From a virus (lineage: Duplodnaviria; Caudoviricetes), in the IMG/VR virus record IMGVR_UViG_3300040811_001959: 64,000 nt of DNA. One strand, written 5' to 3'. The position numbers were made by a program, and so were the translations under genes. Positions 35,893 through 51,956 of this stretch are shown piece after piece (position 1 is the first letter of the stretch; each line of letters opens with the position of its first letter). The notes under the pieces were generated by a model. That model did no database searches. It saw only the letters and a program-made list of their open reading frames with translations, and was not told where the DNA came from.

Positions 35893-35958
35893 AACTTTTC
35901 AGTTGACTTTTTTAATATTGTATATATAATTATAACTTAACGCTAACAAAGAGGAACT

Positions 35959-36072
35959 ATGTGGAAAACAATTAGAAAGGGTATTACCTTTGAAAGAGTT
36001 TTTTATACCTATCTTATCTTTGCTTGGTTTGCAGGCCTAATAGCATTTGCGAGTCTGCGTTTCTATCATTAA
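35959..36072 (+). CDS. Small membrane peptide (37 aa)
   Basis: GAGGA RBS and TTGACT...TATAAT promoter upstream; MWKTIRKG...FAWFAGLIAFASL. Confidence 0.55.
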   Translation: MWKTIRKGITFERVFYTYLIFAWFAGLIAFASLRFYH

Positions 36073-36078
36073 TTTTGA

Positions 36079-36153
36079 GTCCCGGTAGTTAAATGGATAT
36101 AACAGTAGACTTCTAATCTTCTATTCTAGGTTCAATTCCTGGTCGGGACACCA
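36079..36153 (+). tRNA. tRNA-Arg(TCT)
   Basis: GTCCCGG/TCGGGAC acceptor, CTTCTAA anticodon loop, GGTTCAATTCC T-arm, encoded CCA. Confidence 0.9.
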
Positions 36154-36205
36154 TAAAAAAATAGTTGACATAATAAACAGCTATGTTATACTTTTAGAAC
36201 ATTAA

Positions 36206-36292
36206 GCGACTGTGGTGAAACAGGTAAACACACTGGACTTAAAATCCAGCGGCAGTGATGCTTTGCCGGTTCGATTCCGGCCAGTCGCACCA
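36206..36292 (+). tRNA. tRNA-Leu(TAA)
   Basis: CTGGA-CTTAAAA-TCCAG anticodon arm, long variable arm, GGTTCGATTCC, CCA; TTGACA/TATACT promoter at 36165-36192. Confidence 0.93.
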
Positions 36293-36314
36293 CCATTATT
36301 ACTTAAACATTTAC

Positions 36315-36752
36315 ATGAAAAATTTACATAAATGCATAGCGCCAGTATGTGCGATGCCAGCTTGCACTACTCTAGTTGGTTACCATAAACAGCTTATTGA
36401 TAAAAATGGTAATGTAAGTTATAAATTCAGAGCATTTTGTTCTTACCATACAACACATGTCGTTGGTAAAAAAGCAATGAAAGCTTTCAAAATGCGTAAA
36501 GGCGGTTGTGAAAATGTTGACGGAAGATGTGGGTTTGTTTGCGATGCTCCTAATCAACCGTGGCATGTACTAGAGATAGATCACTGGGACGGAGATCGCT
36601 ATAATGTAGAAGAAGATAATCTAGTGGTCCTATGTCCTTGCTGTCATAAGAAAAAAACTTATTTAGTTGGTGACCATCTTAAGAAAAAATACGAAAAAGG
36701 TTCAAATAGTTTATACGATCCTAAAATAAACGAATTTTTTATTATTGAGTAA
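36315..36752 (+). CDS. HNH-motif Cys-rich protein (putative endonuclease)
   Basis: CENVDGRCGFVC...LEIDHWDGDRYN...NLVVLCPCCHKKKT. Start moved downstream of the tRNA. Confidence 0.75.
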   Translation: MKNLHKCIAPVCAMPACTTLVGYHKQLIDKNGNVSYKFRAFCSYHTTHVVGKKAMKAFKMRKGGCENVDGRCGFVCDAPNQPWHVLEIDHWDGDRYNVEEDNLVVLCPCCHKKKTYLVGDHLKKKYEKGSNSLYDPKINEFFIIE

Positions 36753-36756
36753 GAAA

Positions 36757-36885
36757 ATGAAAACACCACCACGTAATTGGGTAGCTCAACAATGTAGGGA
36801 TTTAAAAGGTCCATTCCGTCCTACTGTAGAGTGTGACCGTTCTAAGTATACCCGCAAGCAAAAACATAAAGAGAGATATGCTTAG
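36757..36885 (+). CDS. Small basic peptide (42 aa)
   Basis: MKTPPRNWVAQ...KYTRKQKHK; found manually. Confidence 0.55.
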   Translation: MKTPPRNWVAQQCRDLKGPFRPTVECDRSKYTRKQKHKERYA

Positions 36886-36990
36886 ATTCCTGCGAGGGTT
36901 ATTTTACGCCAGTTTTTCCTTGACATTTATTATTGTTAGTATTATACTAATTGCTTTACTACTAGAAGTTTACATCTTTGAGGAGGTACT

Positions 36991-37296
36991 ATGTCCCTGT
37001 CAACAGTGATTAAAGAAGCAAACATTTATCGTAAATTTTGCAGACAAATGCCTATCGATCCTAGACATGTAAGCGTTAAAGATTCTATTGATCTTTTCCG
37101 CTATATTGATCGAGAACTTAGTCCAGAACACTTGTATCAAGACGGAGAACGTTCTCCTAAAGAAGCTCAACGTCAAGCCGCAAAATTACGCAAGGCTGCA
37201 CAGGTATTGCTAGACCGCGGCTATAAAGCTCCAATTAACCTAGATTGCCTAAGGATTGATTATGCGAATAGATTTTCAAAAGGCGTATGCATCTAA
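36991..37296 (+). CDS. Hypothetical protein
   Basis: GAGGAGG RBS; TTGACA...TATACT promoter near 36920. Confidence 0.75.
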   Translation: MSLSTVIKEANIYRKFCRQMPIDPRHVSVKDSIDLFRYIDRELSPEHLYQDGERSPKEAQRQAAKLRKAAQVLLDRGYKAPINLDCLRIDYANRFSKGVCI

Positions 37297-37582
37297 ATCC
37301 TACTATGATGATGACGGGAAACAATGGCTAGTACAGTTTGGTAATGACTACCAACTCAGCATCATCCGTCATCGTGGTAGTATGGGATACCGTGAAGGAT
37401 TATTTGAAATCGGTGTCTTCGGTGACTGTGACAGCATGGCGGAACTACCAGGTATCACAGCAGAAGGTGATACTGTAAAAGGATTTCTCACACCCGAAGA
37501 AGTTTCTTGTATAATCTTAAAAATGCAATTCCTTACTGACTCACAGCCTCTTTCAGTATTTGGTTTAAGAAATGAAACTTGA
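37256..37582 (+). CDS. Hypothetical phage protein
   Basis: FGNDYQLSII...SMG...GLFEIGV...VKGFLT; start uncertain. Confidence 0.7.
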   Translation: MIMRIDFQKAYASKSYYDDDGKQWLVQFGNDYQLSIIRHRGSMGYREGLFEIGVFGDCDSMAELPGITAEGDTVKGFLTPEEVSCIILKMQFLTDSQPLSVFGLRNET

Positions 37583-38150
37583 AATATTTGAAAATAATAT
37601 TTTAGATATTACTACAAATTTTACTGTACAACAAAAACATTTTTATGATAATATTATTATACTAGTTGACAATTTTTATCAATATCCGCACCATGTAAGG
37701 AATTTTGCAACTAAATTACCTTACTTAAAAGAGACCGATATATCTTATACTGCAGAAGTTATAGTTCCAAATAATATTTTTATTATAGTAGAAGAATTAA
37801 TTAAGGAACATTACCCTCATTTAAGTAAAATAGTTAAGCCTTCAGACACAATAAGATTTAGATTTGTTGACTGTCATAATGAAGAACAAGTAAAAGAAGA
37901 ATGGCATACAGATGGAAAGGGAATAGCAGGTATAATTTTCTTAAATGAAAGACAGAATTCTGGTGGCACAAGTTTCAAGTGTGGCGATACAATTTTAAAT
38001 GTTGAAGGAAGATGGAATAGGCTTATTTTGTTTCCAATGACTTTAGCACACAAACCTTGGTTTGATGACGGAGTATTTGCAGATAGCTATAGAATAACAC
38101 AATTGTTAGCATATAGAATTCGATTAAATAAAATTCTTGAAAATAAATAA
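37572..38150 (+). CDS. 2OG-Fe(II) oxygenase-like protein
   Basis: DNFYQYP..VR.FA, WHTD...AGIIFLN...GGTSF...WNRLILF...HKP...R.TQ; AT-rich insert. Confidence 0.8.
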   Translation: MKLEIFENNILDITTNFTVQQKHFYDNIIILVDNFYQYPHHVRNFATKLPYLKETDISYTAEVIVPNNIFIIVEELIKEHYPHLSKIVKPSDTIRFRFVDCHNEEQVKEEWHTDGKGIAGIIFLNERQNSGGTSFKCGDTILNVEGRWNRLILFPMTLAHKPWFDDGVFADSYRITQLLAYRIRLNKILENK

Positions 38151-38160
38151 ATTTGAAATT

Positions 38161-38237
38161 GGACCTCTAGCTCAATAGGTTAGAGCACACGACTCATAAT
38201 CGTTAGGTTCTCGGTTCAAGTCCGAGGGGGTCCACCA
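38161..38237 (+). tRNA. tRNA-Ile2(CAT), lysidine type (could be scored as Met)
   Basis: GGACCTC acceptor, GACTCATAATC anticodon arm resembling E. coli ileX, encoded CCA. Confidence 0.85.
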
Positions 38238-38264
38238 ACACCATTACACCCCAGGAGAATTATA

Positions 38265-38447
38265 ATGGATTTTAATCACTTTGTATTAATGTTAGCTACT
38301 GCATTTGCTTTCGGTATCTTTGGATATGTTCTAGGTGAGCAAGAACGAGAACGGCAAGCAATCGAACGAGGCTTTGCAATCCACTGTCCATTAGATGGTA
38401 AATTTGGTTGGATAGACGAATGCAAAGAAGAACTTGACATACCTTAA
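38265..38447 (+). CDS. Small membrane protein
   Basis: AGGAGA RBS; TM helix then HCP..G.F.W..EC. Confidence 0.65.
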   Translation: MDFNHFVLMLATAFAFGIFGYVLGEQERERQAIERGFAIHCPLDGKFGWIDECKEELDIP

Positions 38448-38461
38448 TTACATGCTATAAT
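38434..38461 (+). promoter_or_regulatory. Consensus sigma70 promoter for the tRNA-like gene
   Basis: TTGACA, about 16 nt, TG-C-TATAAT. Confidence 0.8.
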
Positions 38462-38478
38462 AAAGTTATATTGAAAAT

Positions 38479-38565
38479 GCGGGGCGTTCCTTCCAGCTGT
38501 CTTATAAGCAGTCAGCCAAACAGGGAGGCGGTGCTATAGAGGTTCAACTCCTCCGCCCCGTACCA
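38479..38565 (+). tRNA. Non-canonical tRNA-like gene, UAU anticodon (Ile), no canonical D-arm
   Basis: 8-bp GCGGGGCG/CGCCCCGT stem plus A-CCA; 4-bp T-stem GAGG-TTCAACT-CCTC; GCTGT-CTTATAA-GCAGT arm; CCTTCC pairs with GGGAGG in a long variable region. Confidence 0.7.
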
Positions 38566-38587
38566 CTCAACCCTAATCACCCATCTT

Positions 38588-39271
38588 ATGATATCTAAAC
38601 GTGTACGAGATCGTTTTGTAGCACAACACGGGGAACCAGCTAACCTAGATGAATTAGGACGAGCCCTTGTCGCCCATATCAACAACCTTGGTGAAAGCTC
38701 AAAGGGCCGTGATAAGGGTCAGCGGGTGCTGGGCTTAGTTTGGAATATTAGCTCAGGCGAGCAGTGCAACAGCCACAACGCACCAGTGGGGGTACCATGT
38801 AGCTGGCATGAACCTGAGAGGTTTCCTGCGTTTTATGGTAAGGTATGGCTGAGACTAGCCAAGCCTCCTGGATGGTCTGTTACTGATTACTTTGAGGGTA
38901 CTTGTTGTCACTTAGGATCAGGTGGGGGCGGGTCATATGAAGGCCCATGGGACCAGCTATATGCAACCTGGCATCAGCAGCATAGGCGTTGGCGTACAAG
39001 GATAAAGTTAGACTATCCTGAACCCATCCTTTACAGTTGGACTTTTACTATCTGGCTGCAGGATTGGCCTCTAATCGAAAAGCATTACAGTAAGTTAGAC
39101 ATGCTTGACATGATCAAAGGAGTTAGGGTAGATTACCTTAAACGTAATCATATGTTTACCTATGAAGCAGAAGGCATAGATGCTGCTGATGGCAAATATA
39201 TACAGCAGTATGCCGAGATTGACTACTCTTTTTGTAGAGATAACCTTTTAAACGAGATTTTTAATGACTGA
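38588..39271 (+). CDS. Hypothetical protein
   Basis: 227-aa ORF; SHNAP.G and HLGSGGGG motifs. Confidence 0.75.
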   Translation: MISKRVRDRFVAQHGEPANLDELGRALVAHINNLGESSKGRDKGQRVLGLVWNISSGEQCNSHNAPVGVPCSWHEPERFPAFYGKVWLRLAKPPGWSVTDYFEGTCCHLGSGGGGSYEGPWDQLYATWHQQHRRWRTRIKLDYPEPILYSWTFTIWLQDWPLIEKHYSKLDMLDMIKGVRVDYLKRNHMFTYEAEGIDAADGKYIQQYAEIDYSFCRDNLLNEIFND

Positions 39272-39428
39272 AGAAACTATCCAAGAACTTGAATATATCC
39301 TACGTGAACAGCAGAGTATGCTCAACGAGTTTGCTACTAATATCGCACAGGTAAGTAGGCAGCTTAGAGAAGTAACTGACCTATTAGACGAGGTAAAATA
39401 TGCGAGTGAACATCAGGCGACCGCCTAA
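39264..39428 (+). CDS. Small coiled-coil protein (54 aa)
   Basis: MTEETIQELEYILREQQ...; overlaps both neighbours. Confidence 0.55.
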   Translation: MTEETIQELEYILREQQSMLNEFATNIAQVSRQLREVTDLLDEVKYASEHQATA

Positions 39429-51675: not shown

Positions 51676-51894
51676 ATGAGTGTAGCAGCCAACATGAACT
51701 TCATCTGGGGCGCCATTGCCAACAAGAGCCGCACAATGATCCAAACAGATCAGGGTCCGATGCGGATCTTCTCCATCCGCACCAAGGCAGGAGTGGATAT
51801 GGAGATCATGGCCGTCAACAATCAATCCAACAACCACACCTTCATCACAGTCACTCCAGACAATTCGGGTGACATCAGATCACGACTTTTTTAA
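51676..51894 (+). CDS. Early hypothetical protein
   Basis: AAGGAGA RBS. Confidence 0.7.
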   Translation: MSVAANMNFIWGAIANKSRTMIQTDQGPMRIFSIRTKAGVDMEIMAVNNQSNNHTFITVTPDNSGDIRSRLF

Positions 51895-51902
51895 AAAAAT
51901 AG

Positions 51903-51956
51903 TTGACTTATCCAAGCTCGTTTGCTATACTATATAGACAGTGAGCGAACGAGCTC
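51903..51956 (+). promoter_or_regulatory. Early promoter cassette P11
   Basis: TTGACT-17-TATACT...ACAGTGAGCGAACGAGCTC. Confidence 0.85.

Follow-up and report, generated by a model that had tools for sequence, protein, structure and literature searches.

Outside mitochondria, the cloverleaf is regarded as a universal feature of tRNA. D-armless mitochondrial tRNAs lose both the D-stem and the contacts at the elbow (PMC7609411). The 8/4 allo-tRNAs, and with them the 8/4 tRNA-Ser and tRNA-His of phages, combine an 8-bp acceptor stem with a 4-bp T stem (PMC5389517), and the initial annotation of the locus described here had stated, correctly according to that study, that allo-tRNAs keep a D-arm in the form of a hairpin. 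The same work provides a cautionary precedent, since the 8/4 allo-tRNA(UAU) species found in Acidobacteria showed no suppressor activity in E. coli, and it was suggested that they have no part in translation (PMC5389517).

Here we describe a tRNA-like RNA encoded on the + strand of a 64-kb stretch of DNA from a tailed phage (Caudoviricetes; IMGVR_UViG_3300040811_001959), referred to below, at its full length, as the window. The phage genes in the window encode tail fibres, virion proteins, DNA polymerase, helicase, primase and endolysin, and sequencing runs containing this stretch come from estuary, freshwater, marsh and seawater samples. Judging from comparative sequence analysis, we would put at roughly two in three the probability that it works as a phage tRNA(UAU), with a core wired unlike that of a cloverleaf.

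A tRNA-like RNA without a D hairpin

The RNA is 87 nt long and occupies exactly positions 38479-38565. Read from its 5' end, it consists of an 8-nt acceptor strand, UU, CCUUCC, a single A, the anticodon arm with its 5-bp stem, a 10-nt A-rich linker, GGGAGG, the segment CGGUGCUAUA, the T arm, the 8-nt acceptor partner and ACCA (Table 1). The acceptor (8 bp) and T (4 bp) stems make up a 12-bp stack, which ends in A73 and an encoded CCA. With this stack and 3' end, a normal T-loop and a normal 7-nt anticodon loop (C32 U33 UAU A37 A38), the RNA retains those features on which the translation machinery acts. All the structural elements named in the initial annotation, among them the encoded CCA, a TTCAACT T-loop and a 7-nt CTTATAA anticodon loop, are present in the sequence between 38479 and 38565. 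A D hairpin is absent: acceptor and anticodon stems are just 9 nt apart, in agreement with the earlier estimate of about 9, the sequence 5' of the anticodon arm cannot form a hairpin, and the 26 nt found 3' of this arm pair with the 5' connector and not with themselves. The minimum free energy (MFE) fold of the single sequence contains the acceptor, T and CCUUCC/GGGAGG helices (z = -2.2). The pair 3:70 is G:C, so that the alanine pair of tmRNA, G3:U70, is missing, and there is no ORF within the 87 nt.

Since the six bases that follow the acceptor stem pair 3' of the anticodon arm, the RNA is a three-way junction, with the anticodon arm nested in the long-range helix and presumably stacked on it. 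The two strands of this helix, which we call x and y, can be assigned to those of an ordinary D-stem. The x strand, leading into N26 and the anticodon stem, plays the role of strand 22-25; the y strand, leading into GGU, the equivalent of G18/G19, plays that of strand 10-13. This GGU, part of CGGUGCUAUA, is invariant in the alignment of homologues and should dock on the T-loop. It had been claimed that the D-arm is replaced. The D hairpin is certainly absent, but the polarity of the D-stem has been retained, as has a D-loop-like GG segment behind the helix, and the arm is for that reason better termed strand-swapped. Segment 10-21 of an ordinary tRNA would, in effect, have been relocated behind the anticodon arm.

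Table 1. Positions of the 87-nt RNA, its parts and the neighbouring elements in the 64-kb window.
Feature	Position	Strand	Remarks
Canonical tRNA(CAU), context only	38161-38237	+	Called by ARAGORN and Rfam; 240 nt upstream of the RNA
Sigma-70 promoter	38434-38461	+	-35 TTGACA (38434-38439), 16-nt spacer with TG extension, -10 TATAAT (38456-38461)
Predicted 5' leader, about 10 nt	38469-38478	+	Placed by distance to the -10 box; probably removed by RNase P
Acceptor stem, 5' strand, 8 nt	38479-38486	+	Pairs with 38554-38561, 8 bp including G1:U
Connector UU (position 8/9 equivalent)	38487-38488	+	
x strand CCUUCC, long-range helix	38489-38494	+	Pairs with 38523-38528; followed by A38495 and the anticodon stem
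Anticodon arm	38496-38512	+	5-bp stem GCUGU/GCAGU, loop CUUAUAA, U33, A37, A38
Anticodon UAU	38503-38505	+	
A-rich linker, 10 nt	38513-38522	+	One-sided internal loop between anticodon stem and long-range helix
y strand GGGAGG, long-range helix	38523-38528	+	Runs on into the GG segment
D-loop-like single strand CGGUGCUAUA	38529-38538	+	
T arm	38539-38553	+	4-bp stem GAGG/CCUC (38539-38542 with 38550-38553), loop UUCAACU
Acceptor stem, 3' strand	38554-38561	+	
Discriminator A73	38562	+	
Encoded CCA	38563-38565	+	

As the initial annotation had expected, the RNA escapes ARAGORN, which did not call it in bacterial mode, in mitochondrial mode or at a lowered threshold, and which found no tmRNA there. 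A search of Rfam gave no match at the gathering score; with relaxed thresholds tRNA-Sec came out best, at 21.4 bits where the gathering score is 47. Within the window ARAGORN calls three ordinary tRNAs, namely Arg-UCU, Leu-UAA and a tRNA with a CAU anticodon. The best full-length matches of the latter in E. coli genomes are annotated as tRNA-Ile (about 80% identical), and this likeness together with the pairs C4:G69 and C5:G68 makes it probably a lysidine-dependent tRNA-Ile2. The phage's other tRNAs (Arg-UCU, Leu-UAA and the Ile2-like CAU) all serve A-ending codons.

The consensus sigma-70 promoter that had been proposed as the RNA's own matches the consensus at 12 of 12 positions, carries a TG extension besides, and is the top site of the 3.5-kb region scanned (35900-39400). 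Promoter-like boxes (TTGAC..TAnnnT) are also found upstream of many homologues, at about the same distance. On the 3' side, an ORF of 227 aa starts at 38588, 22 nt behind the RNA, and the site scan found no terminator-like site between the two. This ORF belongs to no Pfam or PHROG family and has relatives only in the nearest phages, and it was consequently dropped as an anchor for finding homologues of the RNA; distant homologues, which are followed by unrelated ORFs, other tRNAs or nothing, are not linked to it. Metatranscriptome contigs from four libraries (salt marsh, marsh and aquatic) cover the RNA. One of them spans 38470-38628, bridging the RNA and the start of the ORF and beginning where the promoter predicts the start of transcription; as the ends of an RNA cannot be read from contigs, this is no more than a weak hint. 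A second contig, 93 nt in length, covers 38477-38566. These contigs are hints of expression that may include DNA and that cannot fix the ends or the level of the transcript.

Exact and gapped pattern scans, together with a look-up of the downstream protein, yielded three close relatives (L001, L002 and L010). The RNA is identical to theirs at 87/87, 87/87 and 86/87 positions, respectively, with the downstream ORF being 94%, 93% and 83% identical and its third codon positions 89%, 86% and 67%. The 22-nt spacer behind the RNA shows 5-7 changes among the three. The only variable site in these RNAs is 38536, unpaired and located in CGGUGCUAUA, where L010 has G in place of A; the contigs from RNA libraries also vary within the RNA at this position alone, but at many sites in its flanks. 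As the sequence upstream of the promoter is unrelated in L002 and L010, promoter and RNA move as a module. The strong conservation of the RNA against its diverging flanks is a feature beyond chance and shows that the RNA is under purifying selection.

Two branches of a phage family with equal wiring

A search pattern with a fixed acceptor stem returned only identical copies, ordinary tRNAs and chance matches. Homologues were obtained by searching for an anticodon loop and a T-loop at the unusual spacing, and then with a covariance model (R1) built on the proposed fold. R1 scores the 87-nt RNA at 119 bits and finds homologues at 40-103 bits; the model of the second branch described below (R2) gives the 87-nt RNA 30 bits. 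In 14 homologues 98.4% of the cells are paired, 18 of the 23 pairs change on both sides, and each of the four helices shows compensatory changes. In the acceptor stem all pairs (8/8) change on both sides, and the anticodon stem is 100% paired with three compensatory pairs. The first pair of the acceptor stem itself covaries (G:U, C:G, G:C, A:U), so that the stack is truly 8/4 (8 + 4 bp, with covariation in both helices), just as had been claimed. Compensatory changes occur in five of the six pairs of the long-range helix, among whose variants are CCAUUC/GAGUGG, CCCGG/CCGGG, CCAAC/GUUGG and CCUGC/GCAGG. The CCTTCC/GGGAGG pairing, on whose compensatory changes the initial annotation had staked its interpretation, is thus complementary, predicted by the MFE fold and borne out by covariation.

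Two controls were run on these counts. Sliding the 3' partners by 1-3 columns brings pairing down to 45-56%, and none of 500 shuffles reaches the observed values of pairing and covariation. The T-loop and the anticodon loop are conserved across the homologues, with U33 and a purine at 37 being kept. A73 is found in the 87-nt RNA and in all the 8/4 homologues listed, and an AAAC-like motif recurs in the linker of the 8/4 group. When the homologues are folded singly, the MFE structure includes the long-range helix for only about half of them, and RNAalifold misses it on a MAFFT alignment of the 8/4 group because gaps split the y strand; covariation in this group was counted on a structure-aware alignment instead.

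Many of the hits belong to a second branch, of 75-80 nt and with a 7/5 stack. Their 5' half consists of the acceptor strand, UA, U, a 3-nt x strand, 1-2 nt and the anticodon arm, and their 3' half of a linker of 4-6 nt, a 3-nt y strand, UA-R-(N)-GG-N plus 3-5 nt, and the T arm. Their total length is that of an ordinary tRNA, and the order of the segments alone is different. For this group RNAalifold predicts exactly the strand-swapped fold on a plain MAFFT alignment. Positions are paired in 99.3% of the cases, with x/y being CGG/CCG, CCC/GGG or CGU/ACG, and CUC/GAG in phage phi92. An alternative pairing of UAUCG with CGGUG fails in the CCC/GGG variants and was rejected, since what covaries instead is the series CGG/CCG, CCC/GGG, CUC/GAG.

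The segment behind the y strand of the 7/5 genes reads like a D-loop (A14, R15, Y16, G18, G19, N20). In the 71 distinct sequences of this branch UA is universal at positions 8-9, and the equivalent of R15:Y48 covaries in 66 (33 A-U, 33 G-C; other combinations in the remaining 5). With the base preceding the T stem taken as the equivalent of Y48, this pattern reads as the signature of a Levitt pair. Reasoning from known tRNA geometry, an L-shaped core may be kept with three chain connections changed. Both this evidence and that on identity elements given below come from the 7/5 branch; the UA-R motif is absent from the 8/4 branch.

Altogether, the family scans returned 151 strand-swapped genes in 149 loci, and an ARAGORN call overlaps just one of the 151. 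In the real loci a descriptor scan picked up 63 distinct hits, of which one was a mis-parsed tRNA-Ser; in shuffled loci it picked up none. The anticodons of the family are UAU, UCU, CCU, UCG and GUA. In the 7/5 branch, counting distinct sequences, there are 41 with UAU, 22 with UCU, 7 with CCU and 1 with UCG; when the anticodon was left free but the common x/y sequence of the 7/5 UAU group was required, a scan returned UAU hairpins alone. Two broader anticodon-blind scans detected the others, namely the Arg anticodons just listed for the 7/5 branch and, in the 8/4 branch, GUA (loci L251, L253, L262 and L266) and UCU (L250). The suggested check for homologues with other anticodons thus turned up four of these (UCU, CCU, UCG and GUA). 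The UAU anticodon itself was confirmed in the window, but the fold, which carries Arg and Tyr anticodons too, is not special to it.

The base that follows GG in the 7/5 branch is A in 30/30 genes with an Arg anticodon and U in 41/41 genes with UAU, and the discriminator is A in 41/41 of the latter. For E. coli ArgRS the main identity element in the D-loop is A20, and the identity set of Ile includes A73. We take the A after GG in the Arg-anticodon genes to be the A20 element of ArgRS. On sequence grounds, the distribution of these elements is the one that cognate charging predicts, and it differs from the one to be expected of a decoy or a pseudogene. Furthermore, among loci containing at least eight other tRNAs, 19 of 20 are without a canonical tRNA of the same anticodon, the exception being Tyr-GUA.

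Members of the family exist in cultured phages, where they are almost always unannotated or labelled 'tRNA-OTHER' in the GenBank records. The Arg-UCU form is present in Pseudomonas phage PAK_P2 and its relatives, phiPsa397, Agrobacterium phage Atu_ph04 and the E. coli phi92 group, as well as in Stenotrophomonas phage SOVA965, Limnohabitans phage DC31, and Streptomyces and Mycobacterium phages. The phi92 member, at 51874-51952 of NC_023693.1, sits between tRNA-Leu and tRNA-Ser, behind a TTGACA/TATAGT promoter of its own. Neither the 87-nt RNA nor its surroundings had a relevant BLAST match in 50,697 cultured phage records, and the 7/5 UAU form had none in such records. Two suspected members, sRNA1 and sRNA2 of PAK_P3 (PMC4933390), are not matched by the 7/5 model. 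A scan of 185,579 bacterial and archaeal species (one genome each) with the UAU pattern found no strand-swapped member; all that it returned were class II-like tRNA(UAU) in Planctomycetes, genes resembling allo-tRNAs in Acidobacteria, and chance hits. The 87-nt RNA is by these comparisons a member of a large, essentially unannotated phage family. A description of this wiring was not found in the full-text literature searched, an absence that pertains to the searchable library and is not proof of novelty.

Proposed decoding of AUA and alternative roles

The codon AUA is used 28.6 times per 1000 codons in the window and makes up 39% of its Ile codons. UUA and AGA reach 34.9 and 14.9 per 1000, matching the Leu-UAA and Arg-UCU tRNAs of the phage. 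A decoder of AUA that is independent of TilS is, only indirectly, the best supported reading of the 87-nt RNA; in its favour are the use of AUA, the phage's other tRNAs for A-ending codons, the empty anticodon slots that the family fills in large clusters and the isoacceptor-specific identity elements. UAU, A37, A38 and A73, as expected of a tRNA-Ile(UAU), are all present in the 87-nt RNA, for which we infer an L-shaped fold, processing, aminoacylation with Ile and decoding. In the mechanism that we propose, the RNA, having a consensus promoter to itself, would be transcribed by host RNA polymerase and processed by RNase P and by trimming at the 3' end; host IleRS would charge it through A35, U36, A37, A38 and A73, and EF-Tu would bring it to the ribosome. 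There it would read AUA with no need of lysidine and hence of TilS, and in a phage rich in AUA it would back up the host's own AUA decoder, which is scarce. Such a decoder is partly redundant, given that the phage already has an Ile2-like tRNA(CAU) upstream; a TilS-dependent and a TilS-independent reader of AUA in one phage would amount to redundancy or to insurance. Against decoding it must also be said that a UAU anticodon risks misreading AUG unless U34 is specially handled.

The main rival to this proposal is a tRNA mimic that is processed, and perhaps charged, but does not decode, acting as a decoy or sponge for a host nuclease directed at tRNA, for TilS or for some other factor that binds tRNA, or as a regulatory sRNA. 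Rejection of the 87-nt RNA by the standard tRNA models and the adjoining Ile2-like tRNA(CAU) both speak for it, and precedents exist in the soil-bacterial allo-tRNA(UAU), which showed no activity when tested in translation and have a link to toxin-antitoxin loci (PMC5389517), and in the tRNA cluster of T4, which includes two functionally uncharacterized tRNA-like stable RNAs, rnaC and rnaD. However, a decoy needs no identity elements matched to its anticodon, and the 7/5 branch has them throughout (A in 30/30 with Arg anticodons, U plus A73 in 41/41 with UAU). The filling of empty anticodon slots in 19 of 20 large clusters is also at odds with this role, as are the canonical anticodon loop (U33, purine 37) and the fit between the anticodons and codons heavily used by the phage. 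Two observations weaken the decoy that the initial annotation had offered as its second possibility, namely this pattern of identity elements and the lack of redundancy between these genes and the others in tRNA clusters, and we consider a non-decoding role unlikely. That the rearranged fold evades tRNA-cleaving defences, as had also been suggested, is pure speculation.

The RNA could instead be a working adaptor charged with an amino acid other than Ile, for instance with Leu by LeuRS, AUA being then partly recoded in phage proteins. LeuRS relies on A73 and on core architecture, and the fold is related to tRNA(UAU) genes with a long variable arm (class II-like) on the same phage contigs. Moreover, nematode tRNA-Ile(UAU) species with a V-arm are leucylated in vitro (PMC4300185), and allo-tRNAs insert Ser or Ala at non-cognate codons (PMC5389517). 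But no variable-arm hairpin protrudes from the present fold, A37, A38 and A73 fit Ile identity, and wholesale recoding would be costly because AUA represents 39% of the Ile codons across structural and replication genes. In addition, the Arg element A20 in the Arg-anticodon relatives argues that cognate charging is the rule in the family, and charging with another amino acid seems to us improbable. Less probable still is that the RNA acts in cis, as a leader or processing signal of the downstream 227-aa ORF. Promoter, RNA and ORF do travel together in the three closest contigs despite their differing upstream context, no terminator-like site separates RNA from ORF, and one RNA-library contig bridges the two; yet distant homologues precede unrelated ORFs, other tRNAs or nothing, the ORF family is confined to the nearest relatives, and co-transcription of tRNA and mRNA is ordinary in phages. 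Lastly, failure in all tRNA detectors and the missing D hairpin might point to a decaying tRNA pseudogene or the remnant of an integration site. A degenerate pseudogene is effectively refuted by the covariation and by conservation relative to third codon positions: the RNA differs by at most one base over its 87 nt where neighbouring third codon positions have changed by 33%, and every helix has compensatory changes. A perfect promoter and many relatives with equal wiring leave hardly any room for this explanation.

Turning from these alternatives to the proposed decoder and its family, we rate as about even the chances that these genes make up a widespread phage class of translationally active, non-cloverleaf tRNAs, in which the D-stem flanks the anticodon arm and the D-loop lies behind it. 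Such a class would serve UAU, UCU, CCU, UCG and GUA anticodons, mostly reading rare, A-ending codons. Its rewiring may keep the L-shape required by aminoacyl-tRNA synthetases, EF-Tu and the ribosome and at the same time remove the surface seen by host tRNA-targeting nucleases or modification enzymes. If the RNAs decode, they would be a natural counter-example to the universality of the cloverleaf and would show that the tRNA core tolerates altered strand connectivity, a new solution to the L-shape for structural biology and possibly an orthogonal scaffold for synthetic biology. The tRNA repertoires of phages, and the codon-usage arguments built on them, would in that case have been undercounted, as the near-complete failure of ARAGORN on the family indicates. 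The question is directly testable, because members occur in cultured E. coli and Pseudomonas phages.

Comparison with known tRNAs and tRNA-like RNAs

With canonical tRNA (RF00005) the 87-nt RNA shares the 12-bp acceptor/T stack, a T-loop of the form UUCRAYU, the 7-nt anticodon loop, U33 and A37. It resembles a canonical tRNA-Ile(UAU), such as the AUA decoder of Mycoplasma mobile, in A73, CCA and the UAU anticodon, and it is placed among phage tRNA genes. It differs from canonical tRNA in having no D hairpin, with the D-stem strands flanking the anticodon arm and the GG segment lying 3' of it, in forming a three-way rather than a four-way junction, and in its 8/4 instead of 7/5 arrangement.

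The likeness to the 8/4 allo-tRNAs lies in the 8-bp acceptor stem and 4-bp T stem, and UAU is the commonest anticodon among them (PMC5389517). Like tRNA-Sec and the 8/4 allo-tRNAs, which have a 6-bp D-stem and a tetraloop, the RNA has a long helix followed directly by YGGU, and like the allo-tRNAs it surfaced as a weak look-alike of tRNA-Sec. Allo-tRNAs, however, keep both a D hairpin (long stem and tetraloop) and a variable-arm hairpin, of which the 87-nt RNA has neither, and they carry mostly G73 or U73 where the 87-nt RNA has A73 (PMC5389517). They are known from Acidobacteria, Clostridia and Proteobacteria, whereas the strand-swapped form was found only in phage DNA.

D-armless mitochondrial tRNAs, such as mammalian tRNA-Ser(AGY) and those of nematodes, also have no D hairpin and possess an extended helix on the anticodon side (PMC7609411). 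In these the connector is short and unpaired, in contrast to the 87-nt RNA, which has a paired equivalent of the D-stem, GG and a full T-loop, is of normal or larger size, and is not called by ARAGORN in mitochondrial mode.

T4 rnaC and rnaD (species 1 and 2) are, like the 87-nt RNA, small, have tRNA-like ends and are encoded within a phage tRNA cluster; their length is 119-139 nt, and in sequence they bear no relation to it. As relatives they were rejected, their likeness being limited to the T arm (R2 against the T arm of rnaC, E = 0.19, with no other model match). The tRNA-like domain of tmRNA shares with the 87-nt RNA an acceptor stem, a long helix closed from both sides, a T arm and a single-stranded analogue of the D-loop. 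This analogue lies 5' of the long helix in tmRNA and 3' of it in the 87-nt RNA, which also departs from tmRNA in lacking G3:U70, an mRNA-like part and a tag ORF and in carrying a true anticodon loop.

Strand-swapped tRNA genes in cultured phages and tRNA clusters

Strand-swapped tRNA-Arg(UCU) genes, in which the D-stem is formed by strands on either side of the anticodon arm, occur in cultured phages. The copy of Escherichia phage phi92 lies between an annotated tRNA-Leu(TAA) and an annotated tRNA-Ser(TGA) and has its own promoter (TTGACA/TATAGT), and the same gene is annotated in phage Antha as 'tRNA-OTHER'. The phi92 gene offers a ready test system in E. coli. The PAK_P2 copy also has its own promoter upstream, and it is followed by a gene for an HNH endonuclease. 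Two strand-swapped genes can share one cluster, as in the phage locus L022, where Arg-UCG and Ile-UAU genes accompany 20 tRNAs called by ARAGORN, which called neither of the two.

Features discussed in the text (L-numbers denote loci outside the window, with local coordinates)
Feature	Location	Remark
Arg(UCU), strand-swapped, phi92	L355 1460-1538 (NC_023693.1 51874-51952)	unannotated
Arg(UCU), strand-swapped, Antha	L357 360-438	
Arg(UCU), strand-swapped, Pseudomonas phage PAK_P2	L353 1495-1569	unannotated
Arg(UCU), strand-swapped, Agrobacterium phage Atu_ph04	L354 1499-1574	unannotated
Arg-UCG, strand-swapped	L022 2864-2942	
Ile-UAU, strand-swapped	L022 5506-5582	
PAK_P3 sRNA2 region	L356 46309-46425	
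tRNA-Leu(UAA)	window 36206-36292	
HNH endonuclease ORF	window 36255-36752	overlaps 3' part of tRNA-Leu(UAA)
tRNA(CAU)	window 38161-38237	
227-aa ORF	window 38588-39271	cysteine-rich

Other tRNA(UAU) genes and tRNA-like RNAs

A third type of tRNA(UAU) in phages, with normal topology, was seen in L021, L023, L031, L091, L072, L111, L037, L041, L105 and other loci. It has a D stem of 3-4 bp with a GGU tetraloop, an anticodon stem of 6-7 bp and, in the loop of its long variable arm, a conserved AGAU(U/A)A; some examples are called by ARAGORN as a 94-nt tRNA-Ile(tat). This kind may be related to the 8/4 rewired form. In bacteria, tRNA(UAU) genes occur with a long variable arm in Planctomycetes genomes (L238, L202, L226, L228) and in an allo-tRNA-like form, with G73, in Acidobacteria genomes (L234, L249).

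Pseudomonas phage PAK_P3 sRNA2, an abundant published small RNA (PMC4933390), is another odd tRNA-like RNA: it has a T arm, and a 7-bp helix in it closes about 117 nt. Considered as a 7/5 strand-swapped member, it gave no match to the 7/5 covariance model.

Surroundings of the window RNA

The ORF directly behind the strand-swapped RNA, a position that it always holds in the nearest phages, could be assigned to no family, and just two of 5.8 billion proteins were related to it. Upstream, the window tRNA(CAU) was labelled tRNA-Met by ARAGORN and looks like a lysidine-dependent tRNA-Ile2; if so, the phage would have two AUA readers of different kinds, separated by 240 nt. Near-consensus promoters precede the window tRNA genes (35903, 36165 and 38434) with the exception of this tRNA(CAU), for which the closest upstream promoter-like site (38106) matches the consensus at only 9/12 positions. 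The overlap of the HNH ORF with tRNA-Leu(UAA) is reminiscent of segB, a homing endonuclease of the tRNA cluster in T4.
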